A stretch of 64,000 bases of DNA. It comes from an uncultured virus (IMG/VR IMGVR_UViG_3300020044_003647) (taxonomy: Duplodnaviria; Heunggongvirae; Uroviricota; Caudoviricetes). Position numbers and translations under genes: made by a program. Position 1 is the stretch's first letter, and each line of letters starts with the position of its first letter. This document shows, piece by piece, positions 2,530 through 38,548 of this stretch. A model generated the notes under the pieces. That model was given only the letters and a program-made list of their open reading frames with translations. It was not told where the DNA came from and searched no databases. The stretch lies in the IMG/VR virus record IMGVR_UViG_3300020044_003647; one strand, 5' to 3'.

Positions 2530-2973
2530 TTAAAATGATATTGCCAAACTGCTTTTGCGAGGCGTTGTACTAACTTTAGGCACTTGAACTCCTGCCGCAT
2601 CGTATATTTCGTTTTGCGATTTTAAAGCTAACTTTAGTAAGTCCTCACGTTCTTTAAGTTCTCGATTAATGTCGCTCCACACTTCGCAGTCTTTGTAATT
2701 AATTGTTTCGCCACCACTTCTAAATGTGCCTTTAAGTCCAAACGCTTCAAAGTTTTCTTGCGGAAGTACTTTTAAAAGTTCAGCGTTAATTACTTCCAAC
2801 GCTTCGCCCATTCGTTTGGCTTGTGCTAGTAGTTCAAATTTGTCTGTTTCTCCAGCATCTAACAAATCTTTAATGAATGTTTGTGCCGAGAACTGGATTT
2901 CTTTTTTGTTTGGTAAGAAATTGCTTGTTTGAATTTCTTGCTCTCTCATTAACTGGAATAAATCTTTGCTCAT
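2530..2973 (-). CDS. Conserved phage hypothetical protein
   Basis: Homologue at 33226..33669. Confidence 0.75.
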   Translation of the reverse strand: MSKDLFQLMREQEIQTSNFLPNKKEIQFSAQTFIKDLLDAGETDKFELLAQAKRMGEALEVINAELLKVLPQENFEAFGLKGTFRSGGETINYKDCEVWSDINRELKEREDLLKLALKSQNEIYDAAGVQVPKVSTTPRKSSLAISF

Positions 2974-2990
2974 AATGTTTAAATTAAAAA

Positions 2991-3083
2991 ATCCTAACTT
3001 AAATCCTATTGGTCAGAATAGGCAAAATTAGGATCGATTATAATTTTTGTTTCAATCTCTGACCAGATTGTTTTGCAAATGTA
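2991..3083 (-). ncRNA. Promoter plus two-hairpin kissing-loop leader RNA (type 2)
   Basis: TACATTTG box; CAAUCU-GGUCAG-AGAUUG; then AUCCUAA..CCUAUU-CUGACC-AAUAGG..UUAGGAU and a U-run. Confidence 0.7.
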
Positions 3084-3088
3084 ATTAA

Positions 3089-4190
3089 TTACATATTACC
3101 ATCAAAATTTTTTCGAATAATTGTGTCGATTTTTTTACTTATATCGTTAAAATAAGTCGTTTTTAGAATAGTGTCGGTTGTTGCTAACTCGTTATTCATT
3201 TCCTCAAACAAAGCGATTAAGTCTAACCTTGCCTTTTTCATCTTTGGAGTTGTAGCTTGTAACTCGTCTAAGTTTTCTAACATCAAATGCGATAGGCATA
3301 CCAGCTTGTGCATCAATTGGTCTTTACGTTTACTCATAATTCATTTTGCTAAAAGTCAATAGAAATTTATCTTTTCCCTCTGTGATGTATATTTCTTGTA
3401 GGTACTCTTGATTTGTAAAGGAAACGTAACCGCTATGATTGATTCCTAACCGCACTAATTTAGCATCTAGTAAGTGTCTAGGTATTCCAGACTTTTCGGA
3501 GAACGCTCGTGTGGTGCTGTGGGTTTCTGTTTGTGATATTACTAGCATAGTTCATCGGTGTTATCTTCTTTTCCCTCTTGCCAATTTACTTCCCAATCTT
3601 CAACGATTGAACTCACGTTAGTGAAAGTAAAGTAAAAGAACACGCAGTAAAATAGAATAAAAAACGCTACTGCTCCTGCTAGGAATGGGTGCAAATCTAT
3701 AAAGTTGAATAAGTCTTTCATTAGAATAAGTTGTTTAGTTGCTTAATAGGGTTTTGAAATATCTCGTCAAAGACTTTAGTAGCTTGGTCTAGTTGTGGAG
3801 TGTTTAATACTTCCGCATCGTTTACTTCCCAATCGTTAAGTAAAGACTGCATTAAGTCTTTAGCTTGTCTTAGTTCGTTCTCTAGATAAGCATTTCTAGT
3901 TCTTAATGCTTCTATTTGCTCCGCTTGAAATTTAATTAAATCATTCATTATTCTATGTCTTTTAAAAGGTTTGATATTATTGTTGCTAATCCGTTATTGT
4001 CGTACATTCCATCCGCTAGAAATTTAATCTCTTTAATGTAAACCTCTAAGGTAATTGCTTTTTTCATCCACTCCATTTTTTCATTAAATAAAGTGTTTGC
4101 TAGTTCTTCATAACAGTCAACATTATTGTCAACTTGGTTCGCTGGGTGGCTACTGTTGCCAACTCCTAATACTTGGTCATCGTAATTCAT
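3089..4190 (-). CDS. Cluster of small early genes (3089-3337, 3330-3548, 3542-3721 membrane peptide, 3721-3948, 3948-4190)
   Basis: Translationally coupled ORFs with homologues at 36063-37405. Confidence 0.7.
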
Positions 4191-4218
4191 AATATTTGTT
4201 TTTTAAAGTTTGATAGGG

Positions 4219-4281
4219 CAAATGTAAAATAAAAAAGTTAATAAAAAAATTTTTTTATATAAAAGTTTATTTGTAGGTTTG
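4219..4281. promoter_or_regulatory. Divergent Bacteroidota primary-sigma promoters around an 18-bp A/T palindrome
   Basis: TACATTTG (minus, 4219-4226) and TAGGTTTG (plus, 4274-4281) match the TAnnTTTG -7 box. ATAAAAAAATTTTTTTAT lies at 4241-4258. Conserved at 37942-38004. Confidence 0.7.
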
Positions 4282-4300
4282 CAAATGTAAGTAGGTTAAT

Positions 4301-5339: not shown

Positions 5340-5461
5340 AAAAAAGAGTAGCGTATAACGGTAAACTTGAGAAGTATAAGATTGAAGTGATCGGAGGTAC
5401 AAAAGAATGCAACCGATTGGCTTACGATTATTTAACTAAAAAATACAATGAAAGAAAATAA
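5312..5461 (+). CDS. 49-aa basic protein starting MAGRPKKG; candidate DNA-binding regulator
   Basis: Conserved at 38247..38396 with mostly synonymous changes. Confidence 0.65.
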   Translation: MAGRPKKGIEKRVAYNGKLEKYKIEVIGGTKECNRLAYDYLTKKYNERK

Positions 5462-5531
5462 CGAGGATATTGTGCTTTTAATAGTTATGCTTTTACTAGC
5501 GATAACTTATGGCGTTTTAGTTTGTTGGTAA
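5448..5531 (+). CDS. 27-aa single-transmembrane peptide
   Basis: MKENNEDIVLLIVMLLLAITYGVLVCW; conserved at 38383..38466. Confidence 0.55.
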   Translation: MKENNEDIVLLIVMLLLAITYGVLVCW

Positions 5532-5555
5532 TTAAAATAAATTACTACATTTGCC

Positions 5556-5614
5556 TTTCATAATGTTTGATGTTTGATAATTAGAAAAGCCACTATTCAT
5601 CTAGTGGCTTTTTT
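5556..5614 (+). ncRNA. Candidate ~60-nt small RNA
   Basis: TACATTTG box at 5546-5553, then a conserved non-coding tract and an intrinsic terminator. Conserved at ~38490-38548. Confidence 0.55.
5585..5614. terminator. Bidirectional intrinsic terminator
   Basis: AAAAGCCACTA-ttcatc-TAGTGGCTTTTTT between convergent operons. Confidence 0.8.
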
Positions 5615-5715
5615 ATATCATCCTCAATCGGTGGTATTCCTTTCCATTTGTTGACGGCTTTCTCAACTCGCACCCAATCACTACCCTTTTTTATCCATTC
5701 ATATTGAGGTATCAA
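5593..5715 (-). CDS. 40-aa Trp/Lys-rich peptide, last gene of the lysis operon (TTG start)
   Basis: ..YEWIKKGSDWVRV..NKWKGIPPIED; conserved at 38527..38649 with synonymous changes. Confidence 0.6.
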   Translation of the reverse strand: MIPQYEWIKKGSDWVRVEKAVNKWKGIPPIEDDIKKPLDE

Positions 5716-25740: not shown

Positions 25741-26028
25741 TTAACTATTAAATAACTTTTCTAAATCCTTTACCATTATCGCCATTATCTTTTCGCTTTT
25801 GGTGTTGGTGTTATCTAAGCCGAAGTATTTAAGATACAATGCTGCAATGTTAGCATCTGAACTATTAAACGCCTCGCAGTCTTTACAATCGATTTTACAA
25901 ATAGGCTTCTTGTGAGTCCATTTATCCATCGTGAATTGGCGATCCTCACATTTGGCACATTGCTTAATTCCAACTGCCTCTGTGATCTCTTTTACTATTG
26001 TTCCGATTTTTGGTTTTTTACTTGCCAT
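25741..26028 (-). CDS. Cys-containing hypothetical protein
   Basis: IG..V..IT.A.GI..C..CE.R; homologue 59254..59610. Confidence 0.65.
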   Translation of the reverse strand: MASKKPKIGTIVKEITEAVGIKQCAKCEDRQFTMDKWTHKKPICKIDCKDCEAFNSSDANIAALYLKYFGLDNTNTKSEKIMAIMVKDLEKLFNS

Positions 26029-26432
26029 ATCAATTTCTCTTTTACCATTTTATTAATTCTGTGAACTGTTTGGATGTGAATACCTGTTTGCCTTGAAAAT
26101 GGTCTTTGCCCCTCTAGTGTTGAACAAACAAACATTGTCTTTTCGTACCAAGTTAACCGCTTTGTCAGTTCGTCAAACTCTGGGAGCGTTATGTATTCAT
26201 CATCAATAATCTCAAACCTTGTAAAGTCATCGATTAGTATTTCTTTTGTCTTTAAGCTATCGTAAAATAAGTTTCTTAAGATGGTGTAAATGTACGAATT
26301 ATTTATATTCTTAAACGTATGCGCTTTTAAGTACATTTCCTGCACAATATCGTCAGCAAGGTCTTTGTCTTTCGTAATCTTGAAAGCCATCTGTCGCCAT
26401 TGCTTATCATCTTGTGCAAGTTTTTCAATCAT
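25995..26432 (-). CDS. Phage ECF-like sigma factor / late transcription activator
   Basis: LADDIVQEMYLK (region 2-like) and a C-terminal HTH. Confidence 0.65.
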   Translation of the reverse strand: MIEKLAQDDKQWRQMAFKITKDKDLADDIVQEMYLKAHTFKNINNSYIYTILRNLFYDSLKTKEILIDDFTRFEIIDDEYITLPEFDELTKRLTWYEKTMFVCSTLEGQRPFSRQTGIHIQTVHRINKMVKEKLIWQVKNQKSEQ

Positions 26433-28647: not shown

Positions 28648-28838
28648 CGTGTGTAAACTTCTCGAATTTCGTAATTTTCGTAACCTTTCAACTCCGCTCT
28701 TAATTTAGCGTGTTCCTCTGTTCTGTAATAATTTTCAGAGTGTTGGTTCTCTTGTGTCCAGATGTAATATTGCTTTGTCATAATGTTATATTTTAATGTT
28801 TCAACAAAGATTAAAAGAATTTTTTAATTGAACTAATT

Positions 28839-33225: not shown

Positions 33226-33669
33226 TTAAAATGATATAGCCATACTACTTTTTCGTGGCGTTGTTGATACTTTAGGCACTTGAACTCCTGCCGCATCGTA
33301 AATCTCGTTTTGCGATTTTAAAGCTAGTTTAAGAAGTTCCTCACGTTCTTTAAGTTCTCGGTTGATTTCGCTCCAAACTTCGCAATCTTTGTAGTTAATC
33401 GTTTCGCCACCGCTTCGGAATGTTCCTTTTAGTCCGTAACCCTCGAAGTTCTCTTGTGGGAGTACTTTTATAAGTTCTGCATTAATAACATCTAACGCTT
33501 CGCCCATTCTTTTGGCTTGTGCTAGTAGTTCAATTTTGTCTATCTCTCCAGCATCTAACACTTCTTTAATAAATGTTTTTGCAGATAGCTGGATCTCTAG
33601 CTTGTTTGGTAAAAAGTTTTGCGTGTCAATCTCTTGTTGTCGCATTAACTGGAATAAATCTTTACTCAT
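33226..33669 (-). CDS. Conserved phage hypothetical protein
   Basis: Homologue of 2530..2973. Confidence 0.75.
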   Translation of the reverse strand: MSKDLFQLMRQQEIDTQNFLPNKLEIQLSAKTFIKEVLDAGEIDKIELLAQAKRMGEALDVINAELIKVLPQENFEGYGLKGTFRSGGETINYKDCEVWSEINRELKEREELLKLALKSQNEIYDAAGVQVPKVSTTPRKSSMAISF

Positions 33670-33687
33670 AATGTATTAAATTAAAAA

Positions 33688-33779
33688 ATCCTAACTTAAA
33701 TCCTATTGGTCAGAATAGGCAAAGTCAGGATAGATTATAGTTTTGTTTCAATCTCTGACCAGATTGTTTTGCAAAGATA
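33688..33779 (-). ncRNA. Promoter plus kissing-loop leader RNA (type 2)
   Basis: TATCTTTG box; same loops as 2991..3083; outer-stem changes keep pairing. Confidence 0.7.
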
Positions 33780-35963
33780 TTAAAATAAAGTTAATGTACT
33801 ATTTTTTTCTTCAACAAATGCTTTGTGATTATTTTCATTTATCTTAAAATAACTTTCTTTTAATTCAATAGATATGCTTTTACGATTCATTTTTATAGCA
33901 CTACAACCTTCTGAACCAATACCACCAAACGGACTTAAAACCGTTTCGCCCTCATTTGAGTATAAATGTAATATTCTTTCAATAGTATCTAACTGTAAAG
34001 GACAAATATGCTTTTCATCATTACCATCACGCCCAGATCTATATTGTAATGTTCTTGAATAATCTATATCATACCAAACTGGAGATGCGTATTTTTGCCA
34101 CAAATCAACTGGTAAATAATCTAATTTAGAACTGTCTTTATCTTGGTGTGTTATTGGTGTTTCATTATCGCCATCATTTCTAAAAAACAAAACATAATCA
34201 GGGATTCCTACTCGGCTCATTATACTATCTTTTTTTATAGTTTTATGAAGCAATCCTAATGCTTTTGTTCTTTGCATTTCCGTAACTGGATTTTTCCATA
34301 AAGTAACTTTTGAATGATAAATAAAACCTTCCTTTTGAAACCAGTCAATTAACATTCCAGAAAAATCACGCAATCCAATATATCCTTCTTTGCCTTTTTG
34401 TATTGGTAAATCCATACAATGAATAGCGCACATACGACCGCTTTTTAGCGTTCTTTTTAATTCAGGTATAAGGAATTTAAAATGACTCTCAAATTCTTTA
34501 TAATTAGACACGTTGCCCATATCCTCTTCTTTATCTGAATAAACATACAACTCCGCAAATGGTGGCGAAAATATAACTATATCCGCACAGTTATCAGCTA
34601 GTTTAGCAGTTTCTTGAACACAATCTCCGTTTATTAAATGATATTGATCTGTTTTAATTTCTTTATTCATAATTTTTACTTTTGATTTTGATTTTTTATA
34701 ATTAGTTTCTGCGCTATATCTAGACATTTCTTTAATGCGCTCAAAATGTTGTTTTTCTTTTTCTAATATTGTATTTCTAACATTAACTTGAGATTCAGGA
34801 ATAAGGATATGAACTGTTACTTTATTCTTTTGACCAAATCTATAACAACGTCTTACCGCTTGATAAAATGCCTCAAATTTAAAATCATAAGACATAAATA
34901 CCATTTGATTGCATTGTTGGTAATTCATACCAAATGAAGCTATTGAAGTCTTTGTAATTAATGTTTTAAATTGATTATTTGCAAATCCATTTAAATACTT
35001 CGCTTTATATTCTGGATTGTCAGAACCTTGCACATTTACGCTATTTTCAAGTAATTTTGATAAAGTGTCTGTTTCTTGATTCTTTAAACCCCAAACAATC
35101 CATTGATTCTCGTTTGAATTAACAAGTTCTAAGGTCTTTTCAATTCTTAAATCAAAAGACCTATTTAAATCTTTATGTAATTCAGTAGCTGAAACTGCAA
35201 CATCTCCAAATAGATTTTCGCTTAAATTATCTACTTTTATAATATGCTCAATATATTCTATTTCTGGCAAATTATATCCATCACTACAAAAACCTAAACT
35301 AGATGGATTGTCAATAGCCATAGACCATCCAGACACATATTTCCAAAAGTTATCTTGAGCGTGTTTTCTTAATCTCCATTTTGAAGTTTCCCCTCCATCG
35401 TGAACAAAAAACATTGCTAACATTTCTAAATAAGACATACCTCCTAAAAACTCGGAATGTTGACCTAATTCCATGTGATCGTTTGGAGATGGTGTAGCGG
35501 TACAAGCTAATTTATAAGGAGTGTTTTTAAATGTTTGTAAAATTAAAGATGAAAGTTTACCATCTCTGCCTTTTAAAATACTAGATTCATCTAAAACAAC
35601 TCCAGAATAAATGCTACAATCTATATTTTTTAGTTGATCATAATTTGTAATGTCAAAGTAATTTAAGTCAATGCCAAACTTTATAGCTTCATTTTTTGTT
35701 TGCTCTACTATTGCCAAAGGCGCAAGTATTAAAACTTTTTTATTTGTTTTTAAATATACTTGTTTTGCCCATTCTAATTGTGAGAATGTTTTACCTAAAC
35801 CGCAATCAAAAAAGAATGCGAATTTACCCTTAAATAAAGCAGTTTTAATACCATACTTTTGAAAGTCTTTTAGTAATGGATTTAATTCTGTTTCTGAAAT
35901 TTCAAAACCACTTTCTGTAAAAGTTTTACGTTTTGTTTCTAAGAACTTTTGATATTCTGTCAT
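33780..35963 (-). CDS. SNF2-like helicase fused to N4-C/N6-A DNA methyltransferase, copy B only
   Basis: DCGLGKT, DESS, TATP and QAVRRCYRFGQ; then FSPPF (motif IV) and LSPFGGIGS (motif I). Start revised to MTEYQ. Confidence 0.85.
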   Translation of the reverse strand: MTEYQKFLETKRKTFTESGFEISETELNPLLKDFQKYGIKTALFKGKFAFFFDCGLGKTFSQLEWAKQVYLKTNKKVLILAPLAIVEQTKNEAIKFGIDLNYFDITNYDQLKNIDCSIYSGVVLDESSILKGRDGKLSSLILQTFKNTPYKLACTATPSPNDHMELGQHSEFLGGMSYLEMLAMFFVHDGGETSKWRLRKHAQDNFWKYVSGWSMAIDNPSSLGFCSDGYNLPEIEYIEHIIKVDNLSENLFGDVAVSATELHKDLNRSFDLRIEKTLELVNSNENQWIVWGLKNQETDTLSKLLENSVNVQGSDNPEYKAKYLNGFANNQFKTLITKTSIASFGMNYQQCNQMVFMSYDFKFEAFYQAVRRCYRFGQKNKVTVHILIPESQVNVRNTILEKEKQHFERIKEMSRYSAETNYKKSKSKVKIMNKEIKTDQYHLINGDCVQETAKLADNCADIVIFSPPFAELYVYSDKEEDMGNVSNYKEFESHFKFLIPELKRTLKSGRMCAIHCMDLPIQKGKEGYIGLRDFSGMLIDWFQKEGFIYHSKVTLWKNPVTEMQRTKALGLLHKTIKKDSIMSRVGIPDYVLFFRNDGDNETPITHQDKDSSKLDYLPVDLWQKYASPVWYDIDYSRTLQYRSGRDGNDEKHICPLQLDTIERILHLYSNEGETVLSPFGGIGSEGCSAIKMNRKSISIELKESYFKINENNHKAFVEEKNSTLTLF

Positions 35964-36062: not shown

Positions 36063-37914
36063 TTACATATTAAGATCAAAATTTTTGCGAATAATTGTAT
36101 CGATTTTTTTACTTATATCGTTAAAATAAGTCGTTTTGAGAATAGTGTCGGTTGTTGCTAACTCGTTATTCATTTCCTCAAACAAAGCGATTAAGTCTAA
36201 CCTAGCCTTTTTCATCTTTGGAGTTGTAGCTTGTAACTCGTCTAAATTCTCTAACATCAAATGTGATAGGCAAACTAGCTTATGCATTAATTGGTCTTTA
36301 CGTTTGCTCATAATTCATTTTACTAAAAGTCAATAGAAATTTATCTTTTCCCTCTGTGATGTAAATCTCTTGCAGGTACTCTTGATTTGTAAAGGAAACG
36401 TAACCGCTATGATTGATTCCTAACCGCACTAATTTAGCATCTAATAAATGTCTAGGTATTCCAGACTTTTCGGAGAACGCTCTAGTTGTACTGTGTGTTT
36501 CTGTTTGTGATATTATTAGCATAACTCGTCAAAATTATCTTCTTTACCATCTTTCCAATCACACTCCCACGTTTGCACTATCGCACTTACATTAGTAAAA
36601 GTAAAGTAAAAGAAAATGCAGTAAAAAAGGATGTAAAACGCAACCACTCCAGCAAGGAATGGGTGCGTGTCTATAAAGTTGAATAAATCTTTCATTAGAA
36701 TAAATTGTTAAGTTGCTCAATAGGGTTTTGAAATATCTCATCAAAGACTTTAGTTGCTTGGTCCAGTTGCGGAAATTCTAATACTTCCGCATCGTTTACT
36801 TCCCAATCGTTAAGTAAAGACTGCATTAAGTCTTTAGCTTGTTTTAGTTCGTTCTCTAGATAAGCATTTCTAGTTCTTAATGCTTCTATTTGCTCCGCTT
36901 GAAATTTGATTAAATCTTCCATTGTTTTATAGTTTAATTTTAAATTTTTCTTCAATCCATTGCTCGAATGTTTTGCTAACATAACTGCTACTAAAGCATT
37001 TTCTCATTTCTTCTTGTGCATCTTTATAGCATTCTTTTAGTTGCTCTACATTGTAAATGTTTTGCAGTGCTTCTTGATAGCCTTTAATAAATCCATCTCT
37101 TTGTAAGGTTTGATCCGTTTCTGGAAAAGTTTTTTCTGATAATTGTTTTAAGTCCATTATTTAATTTCTTTTAGTTTGTTAAAAATATAAGTATTATCGC
37201 CACACACCGCTTGGCAAAGTTCAACTATTTTCTTGTTAACCGCTTCTCGGTATTTGATGCGGTTTGTTAAATCTCTGATTTTGCTTTCTAAATCGCAAAT
37301 CTCGTTTTCCATTTGCTCCTCAATAGTCAACTCAATTTCTGTTTCCTCTTGGTTCGCTGGGTGGCTACTGTTGCCAACTCCTAATACTTGGTCATCGTAA
37401 TTCATAATGTTAATTTTTAAATGTTTCTAAATAATATTCTAGTCCTATTCTGTTTTGATCTTCACAAACTACATCAAAGGCATCTATAATTTGTTGCTTT
37501 TCTAGTTCTAAAAATTTATAATAATCGTTTATAAACTTTCTGCCATCTAATGAATGTAAATTGAATAAATTAGGATGCTCAATTTCTAACTGGCTAAATA
37601 ATTCTTGCATTGCTGTTTTCATAATTATATAATTTCGTCAATGTAAATAGTTCGTGATGGAAGCGCATCAATTTTAGCACGCTCCTCAATAGTTTCTAGG
37701 TAGTAATCATCTTGGCAATCATAGCCTTTTGATTCAAGTTCATTTTTAGCATCAAGAAATGATTTAGCTTTTACGGTTTTAATAATGCCACCGGTGTGAT
37801 AAGAAGTAAGGTTAAATGTTTTCATTAGTATCTAAATATTATTTGAGTTAGAAACCATACTGCTGCGCCAAACGCAATTAAATACTGCCAATCGTTTTTT
37901 TGAAATGTTTTCAT
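36063..37914 (-). CDS. Cluster of small early genes (36063-36311, 36298-36522, 36695-36922, 36927-37157, 37157-37405, 37410-37622, 37625-37825, 37825-37914)
   Basis: Coupled ORFs; several are homologous to 3089-4190, others are unique to B. Confidence 0.7.
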
Positions 37915-38466: not shown

Positions 38467-38489
38467 TTAAAAAACTATTACATTTGTCA

Positions 38490-38548
38490 CTCATAATGTT
38501 TGATGTTTGATAGATTAGAAAAGCCACTATTTATTTAGCGGCTTTTTT
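38490..38548 (+). ncRNA. Candidate small RNA ending in a bidirectional terminator
   Basis: TACATTTG at 38479-38486; TCATAATGTTTGATGTTTGATA; hairpin AAAAGCCACTA / TAGCGGCTTTTTT. Confidence 0.55.

Follow-up and report, generated by a model that had tools for sequence, protein, structure and literature searches.

The element at 5546-5614 of an uncultured phage raises the question of whether phages of a phylum that starts translation without Shine-Dalgarno sequences carry a small RNA gene directed at start codons. The initial annotation of the 64,000-nt stretch of DNA analysed here (the window) proposed a small RNA antisense to translation starts; such an RNA, encoded by a unit of its own, is well supported by the anatomy and spread of the unit. 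It overlooked that the box of the unit is the Bacteroidota sigma-A -7 element and that there are known analogues, FopS and GibS. To judge from its sequence, 5546-5614 looks like a genuine small RNA gene of the phage, built in the manner of FopS and equipped with its own seed. Statements on published systems refer throughout to the accessible portions of the sources cited.

Genomic context of the locus

Self-comparison, with gene names from PHROG and Pfam, resolved the window into two related phage genomes of ~33 kb in tandem, followed by the start of something else. The tandem genomes (1-61000) have a period of ~32.9 kb and share 70-92% identity in patches; past ~60.8 kb the DNA is AT-rich and unrelated. 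The tandem arrangement is probably a joined assembly, and the two genomes are not independent samples. Each of them has one small RNA unit (at 5546 and 38479), so that this is not a within-genome repeat. Genes lie on the minus strand; a small cargo region that is read rightward separates the leftward early promoter from the end of the late-lysis operon. The cargo region of copy 1 holds a Mom-like gene and is closed by the small RNA unit. None of 20 RNA runs shared more than 0.18 of the words, and within the window the reads of four of them (other organisms' RNA) covered the Mom gene only.

The nearest cultured relative was Nonlabens phage P12024S by portal (37%) and Flavobacterium phage 11b by Erf (62%), and the Baltic Mumin/Lillamy siphoviruses share a 147-aa early protein (~60%); from this relatedness, the host is probably Flavobacterium-like.

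Several further features were observed. A divergent sigma-A promoter pair lies at 4219-4296, and a third box (4289, minus) overlaps the rightward promoter of this pair; the DNA to the right is a swappable cargo slot, occupied by the Mom-like gene in the window and by different genes in relatives. A candidate late activator, encoded by the phage at the early/late border (25995-26432, minus), contains a sigma-70 region 2 domain, and a helicase fused to an N6/N4 DNA methyltransferase (33780-35963, minus) occurs in the second genome only. The 147-aa gene is preceded by a sigma-A box and a conserved structured leader of ~100 nt (2974-3083 and 33670-33779, minus; two hairpins, -23.9 kcal/mol), which is exchanged for other structured leaders in relatives and is a possible cis-regulator. 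At 1209 and 31430 (minus), a sigma-A box is followed by a structured leader of 80-100 nt with a terminator and an internal complementary repeat, ahead of replication genes, and the same leader type precedes replication genes in L570 (33621), L581 (4754), L589 (10345), L592 (3778) and L594 (10373). These leaders, which had no Rfam match, presumably resemble c4-type leader RNAs.

Anatomy of the predicted small RNA unit

The box, tract and terminator described by the initial annotation at 5546-5614 and 38479 were all present (Table 1), both copies holding the box TACATTTG, a 22-nt tract and a hairpin with a U-run. The box fits the Bacteroidota sigma-A -7 consensus TAnnTTTG (PMC9723704, PMC7366714). 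Since the Bacteroidota sigma-A box sits at -12 to -5 (PMC9723704), the predicted +1 of the RNA is 5558 and that of the early leader 4214; the spacer is probably not transcribed. The unit is thus predicted to encode an RNA of ~57 nt (5558-5614), in which an unpaired 5' tract precedes the hairpin and its U-run. Folding was more stable than in shuffled sequences for both copy 1 (z = -4.25, 0/200 shuffles as good) and copy 2 (z = -3.72, 1/200 as good), and left the 5' tract unpaired. The hairpin at 5582-5615 escaped a simple terminator scan, probably because the A-run that precedes it can pair with the U-run as well. This hairpin appears usable on both strands and would also end the convergent late operon. 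The claim that the plus strand holds no conserved ORF needs a qualification, as both copies contain a mini-ORF of four codons (5563-5577), although it is altered in relatives.

Table 1. Coordinates of the small RNA units and of the start regions with which the RNAs may pair.
Feature	Position	Strand	Remarks
27-aa hydrophobic ORF before promoter	5448..5531	+	Several relatives have other genes in its place; hence outside the unit
Possible -33 TTTG	5521..5524	+	21 nt before box; not in all relatives; consensus from PMC7366714
Sigma-A -7 box TAnnTTTG	5546..5553	+	TACATTTG; invariant in 20/20 distinct A sequences
4-nt spacer, six variants	5554..5557	+	Column identity 0.71 vs 1.00 for box
11-nt anti-start-codon seed, predicted 5' end	5558..5568	+	Unpaired on folding; also in cultured phages
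Two GTTTGAT repeats	5565..5578	+	Complement first 7 nt of early leader
Intrinsic terminator hairpin, A-run before, U-run after	5582..5615	+	Folding; stem variants changed on both arms
Small RNA unit, second genome	38479..38548	+	Box TACATTTG at 38479-38486; predicted +1 at 38491
Sigma-A box, leftward early promoter	4219..4226	-	Predicted +1 at 4214
Unstructured leader and AUG, first early gene	4186..4214	-	Best predicted target, two helices
Start region, 147-aa early gene of unknown function	2970..2980	-	Exact 11-nt seed complement, RNAs of both copies
Early promoter box, leader and AUG, second genome	37910..37949	-	-13.8 kcal/mol with own RNA
Early gene start region	37401..37411	-	10-nt match inside predicted RNA
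Start region, 147-aa gene of second genome	33664..33674	-	9-nt match inside predicted RNA
Start region, 45-aa early ORF (start 28781)	28778..28787	-	10-nt match, additional to those of the initial annotation

Conservation and alleles among relatives

An exact 21-mer search recovered 15 IMG/VR contigs that keep box, tract and hairpin while the flanking DNA changes on both sides. Among 62 relative loci picked by the neighbouring 167-aa protein, 31 carried this allele (A), five a second allele (B) and 19 neither, the remaining seven being too short. Allele B has the box TATCTTT[GA], lacks CAT and shares the GTTTGA core of A. Across the 20 distinct A sequences the box was invariant, compared with identities of 0.67 for the 25 nt before it and 0.71 for the spacer, and conservation begins at the predicted +1. 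GTTTGAT follows the seed in all 20, the seed itself being fixed by the search. The stem had 11 variants, some changed on both arms and four with mismatches; in alignment A3, after a slide of +2 columns, 95.5% of it was paired and one pair had a double change. L597 and L594 have no same-strand gene upstream of the unit, which therefore cannot be a 3' UTR there. The putative small RNA gene is an accessory, phage-borne and movable unit with swappable alleles.

A second box-terminator unit of different sequence adjoins the first in L581 (10750-10889), L585 (12976-13049) and L613 (1673), possibly as stacked small RNA genes. Two other interpretations of the unit were tried and rejected. As a minus-strand gene start, the CAT of 14 units gave ORFs of only 5-32 aa that were unrelated and variable. 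As part of a type I toxin-antitoxin system with the 27-aa ORF, the RNA paired weakly with that ORF (-8.9 kcal/mol), which is moreover missing in L002, L005, L006 and L013.

Predicted pairing with start codons

Translation initiation in Bacteroidota depends on adenines at -3, -6, -12 and -13 and on low structure, not on a Shine-Dalgarno sequence (PMC6847099), and the 5' tract mirrors this start-codon context. Pairing energies are RNAduplex/cofold values, and shuffles that keep the anti-AUG (TCAT) served as controls. The two helices that had been proposed with the first early leader exist, although the 13 bp at 4186-4198 and the 8 bp at 4208-4215 shrink to 12 and 7 bp inside the predicted transcripts. 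Together the RNA and this leader reached -15.5 kcal/mol, which one of 1000 anti-AUG-fixed shuffles equalled. The three 11-nt matches annotated at other starts differed in extent: that at 2970-2980 is complete (11/11) for both copies, that at 33664-33674 only for copy 2 and with the use of two bases before +1, and that at 37401-37411 only for copy 1 and with one base before +1. Complements of the seed 8-mer occur six times on the minus strand; two are the element itself and the other four all lie on early start codons.

Eight of 97 real starts paired at -12 kcal/mol or better, against a shuffle mean of 1.9 (1/200 shuffles as good). Seven of these were among 49 early starts (1/200 shuffles reach seven) and one among 48 late-region starts, this last belonging to a cargo gene with its own box. 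The same threshold was reached by 1/64 starts in 11b, 0/47 in P12024S and 2/300 internal ATGs. Compared over all starts, early and late regions gave p = 0.08 (A1) and 0.19 (A2), and B alleles showed neither an anti-AUG nor a preference for starts. The shuffled controls suggested by the initial annotation therefore came out in favour of pairing, both for the first leader (1/1000) and for the number of strong starts (1/200). It had also warned that some matches would arise by chance; pairing in the window exceeded chance, and the cultured phages with the same seed showed no significant match to genes of their own.

Among relatives, the exact 11-nt match of the 147-aa gene was found in 22 of 28 A rows (three contigs counted twice), and also in 2/2 B rows and 4/22 rows in which no unit was found. 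The seed stays fixed while the AUG context of the first leader varies (-9.8 to -18.2 kcal/mol). Covariation, another check that had been proposed, yielded one matching change, an extra base in both the RNA and the 147-aa gene start of L582, but leaders and RNA do not change together within the family and the RNA-by-leader matrix has no clean diagonal. For the 11b RNA, the starts of 11b itself gave the best pairing (z = -2.7); the window RNA reached z = -2.6 on the starts of phage JQ vs -2.4 on its own, and -14.8 to -15.7 kcal/mol with leaders of other phages. Own-start pairing was equalled by 11/100 shuffles in lillamy9-1 and 9/100 in mumin9-3, where the exact seed complement occurs only in the unit itself, and this complement stands at starts in P12024S and P12002L. 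The proposal that the phage's own early genes are the target is plausible, with pairing beyond shuffles in its favour and the all-starts comparison (p = 0.08), the lack of co-change within the family and the lack of an exact own target in cultured phages with the same seed against it.

The cleanest RNA-target pair among those examined came from L666 (2309-2460) and L690 (1267-1420), where box, seed and terminator lie directly upstream of a gene whose start is matched over 14 nt plus a second helix. The RNAs pair at -18.7 and -20.1 kcal/mol, respectively, with this next gene, which has its own box, and read-through would fold back on that AUG (-39 kcal/mol).

Distribution beyond close relatives

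Nine cultured genomes were scanned for box-terminator units regardless of RNA sequence. The cultured Flavobacterium siphoviruses lillamy9-1, mumin9-3 and tooticki9-1 have the box, an identical 11-nt seed and a terminator, in units located behind the lysis amidase gene and in the reverse orientation to it, a position that matches the window. Phage 11b carries a similar unit, whose anti-AUG tract is related. Other box-terminator units, in P12024S, JQ, P12002L, GRAP2 and lotta8-1, were not counted as members; the U-rich ones of P12024S, JQ and P12002L were rejected because their own-start pairing was not above shuffles. Further anti-AUG units were found in L582 and L597 (80 loci chosen by SSB alignment).

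Scanning for box plus seed gave at least 113 rows, at least 81 of them from one group of large phages (L658 and at least 80 other rows). These are contigs of 78-160 kb with ~46% G+C that have the box, the same 11-nt seed and a terminator, and no own target was found within 4 kb. Box, seed and terminator recur together in unrelated contigs among the matches listed (the L658 group, L688, L691, L673 and L749). A terminator followed box and seed in 9 of the 28 intergenic lineages listed vs 25 of 421 unselected intergenic boxes (p = 7e-5; lineages after clustering, own family included). Anti-AUG words among terminator-bearing boxes of an unbiased set gave p = 0.017 for TCATA and 0.059 for TCAT, compared with 0.052 for the control word TCTA. 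A look-alike in L137/L320 is doubtful, as its start falls within a stop codon and its pairing with own leaders is weak (best -7.8).

Other searches yielded little. Blastn of the region against cultured phages gave only chance or Mom matches, plasmids had no match to the region, and the L658 region had no match in its search. Looser sequence patterns returned mostly chance rows, and a metagenome scan one true member among 101. Tblastn with NinG and endolysin produced no useful Bacteroidota accessions, and GTDB genomes matched neither the DNA pattern nor the 147-aa protein.

Proposed function and alternative explanations

From the observed DNA anatomy, conservation as a movable unit and pairing beyond shuffles, we infer the transcription of the small RNA, its exact +1, repression, targets and timing. 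Host sigma-A RNA polymerase would make the non-coding RNA from the onset of infection, very probably as a separate unit. Its unpaired U-rich 5' tract would then pair in trans over the AUG and the preceding A-rich bases, which are the initiation signal in Bacteroidota in place of a Shine-Dalgarno sequence, and would block ribosome loading like FopS and GibS. Such action over start codons is likely. The best own targets would be the sigma-A-driven early messages (the first early leader and the 147-aa gene), and the RNA would be a delayed brake on early genes, whereas structural genes, mostly without a match, would stay on. We thus suggest that its probable effect is to dampen the translation of early genes of the phage itself, and perhaps also of genes of the host or of rival phages. 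Taking own early genes as the main targets is a tentative choice, with slightly less than an even chance; it is the leading option only.

The same RNA and the same pairing might have been selected for targets outside the phage, namely host messages that have this widespread start context (surface receptors, defence genes) or early messages of co-infecting phages, the matches to own genes being a by-product of a common start-site style. FopS, for example, silences SusC transporters (PMC11697453). Such outside targets would suit an accessory unit with swappable alleles, a seed that some phages share in identical form without matching it at their own starts and that recurs with box and terminator in unrelated contigs among the matches listed, and the pairing of the window RNA with other phages' leaders, including complements at P12024S and P12002L starts. 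Yet own starts beat shuffles or pair very strongly in the window family, 11b, GRAP2, L582 and L666/L690, and we regard selection for outside targets as rather unlikely. If there were no separate RNA, the element would serve the rightward cargo operon as its 3' UTR and as a terminator in both directions, with a chance box and a compositional match to starts. TAnnTTTG is indeed frequent in the window, the unit begins 14 nt after a stop codon, L384, L389, L393, L400 and L428 have a terminator right after the stop without box or seed, and reverse strands of ordinary start regions look alike. We nevertheless consider this improbable: box and seed do not vary, unlike the spacer and the DNA upstream, some units have no gene upstream on their own strand, pairing beats anti-AUG-fixed shuffles and terminators are enriched. 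No more probable, in our estimate, is an RNA that is made but does not pair and that instead acts as a decoy sequestering an RbpB-like RNA-binding protein or serves as the message of a minigene (ATG TTT ... stop). The unstructured U-rich tract with its repeats, the plus-strand ATG with A at -3 in the seed and the binding of RbpB to the 5' part of FopS (PMC11697453) would fit these roles; however, the length of the mini-ORF varies among A alleles, B, 11b, L582 and L597, which mostly keep CAT, lack it altogether, and a decoy would not need complementarity to start sites.

By comparison with the c4/CI mechanism, the unit might instead encode an RNA that confers immunity in a lysogen or a carrier state, as CI does in P4 and c4 in P1. 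Two-site pairing with the first early leader resembles the P4/P1 systems (PMC3632133), and superinfection immunity had been raised by the initial annotation. However, 2/2 near-complete relatives lack a tyrosine integrase and 5/5 lack an HTH_3 repressor, neither the element nor the 147-aa gene was found in GTDB genomes, no Rfam c4 match was obtained, and tooticki6-1 has been called lytic (PMC7077304). Prophage immunity is therefore unlikely, and an immunity RNA of any such state is the least probable of the readings considered, with only a very slight chance. The RNA may still exclude later-arriving phages from an infected cell, and unit-bearing phages may have a carrier state.

A broader and rather speculative proposal is that lytic Bacteroidota phages share swappable 'anti-Kozak' RNAs. 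Since translation in the phylum begins at AUGs with A-rich surroundings and without Shine-Dalgarno sequences, one 11-nt seed, conserved between lake-type Flavobacterium siphoviruses and large unrelated phages, could silence a whole class of messages (own early, host receptor or defence, and rival), with virion genes avoiding the match.

Comparison with known regulatory RNAs

The c4, CI and CA RNAs are structured, are processed from the leader that they control and belong to temperate phages, whereas the window unit is separate, unstructured and found in apparently lytic phages; Rfam c4-type models had no match to it. What c4 RNA of P1/P7, CI RNA of P4 and CA RNA of N15 have in common with the proposed role is that they are phage small RNAs repressing own lytic-side genes (PMC3632133). 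Lambda OOP, PreS and VpdS of a Vibrio phage are also phage RNAs that base-pair with phage or host messages; OOP is cis-antisense and PreS Hfq-bound, and none is described in the accessible part of that source as aimed at a common start-codon context (bioRxiv 10.1101/2024.10.31.621285). Candidate ncRNAs of Pseudomonas lytic phages have been listed without function (PMC10914365). To our knowledge, base-pairing RNAs of lytic phages with a known job are few, and our literature search found none for Flavobacterium phages, most subscription papers lying outside its scope. The cultured phage-host pairs with the same seed (lillamy9-1, mumin9-3, tooticki9-1) and the similar unit of 11b make the present reading directly testable and, if it is true, a repressor of 57 nt would be a handy tool for Flavobacterium genetics.

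Closer analogues come from Bacteroides thetaiotaomicron, in which blocking of start codons has been shown for both FopS and GibS (PMC11697453, PMC7366714; review PMC13750123). GibS pairs over starts without Shine-Dalgarno sequences through two seed regions in its unstructured 5' part; it differs from the window unit in being 145 nt long and chromosomal, with a non-canonical promoter and metabolic targets (PMC7366714), and has no sequence match to it. FopS (RF04319), which has also been found in one phage, shares with the window unit a sigma-A promoter, a single-stranded 5' seed over the start codon and a Rho-independent terminator (PMC11697453); in the window this promoter is the invariant TAnnTTTG at 5546, with predicted activity. 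FopS is 65-70 nt long, compared with a predicted ~57 nt for the phage-borne, single-copy window RNA, and its seed reaches into the first codons whereas that of the window RNA reaches into the seven bases before the AUG (PMC11697453). Only a TCATA core is common to the FopS R1/R1' seed consensus and the window seed (PMC11697453 supplement). FopS has 12-15 copies per genome against one unit per phage genome and, unlike FopS, the window RNA has own phage genes as candidate targets. RF04319 (gathering cut-off 56 bits) had no match in the window and 0/5 records exceeded the cut-off; its weak hits lie elsewhere and are reverse strands of ordinary start regions. The window RNA is thus of FopS/GibS-like build and, by analogy, would share their mechanism, but is not FopS, because RF04319 fails, the seed differs and there is one copy. 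If this reading is true, phages have adopted the initiation blocking of FopS and GibS in a phylum without Shine-Dalgarno sequences, whether for the timing of their early genes or for the silencing of host and rivals.
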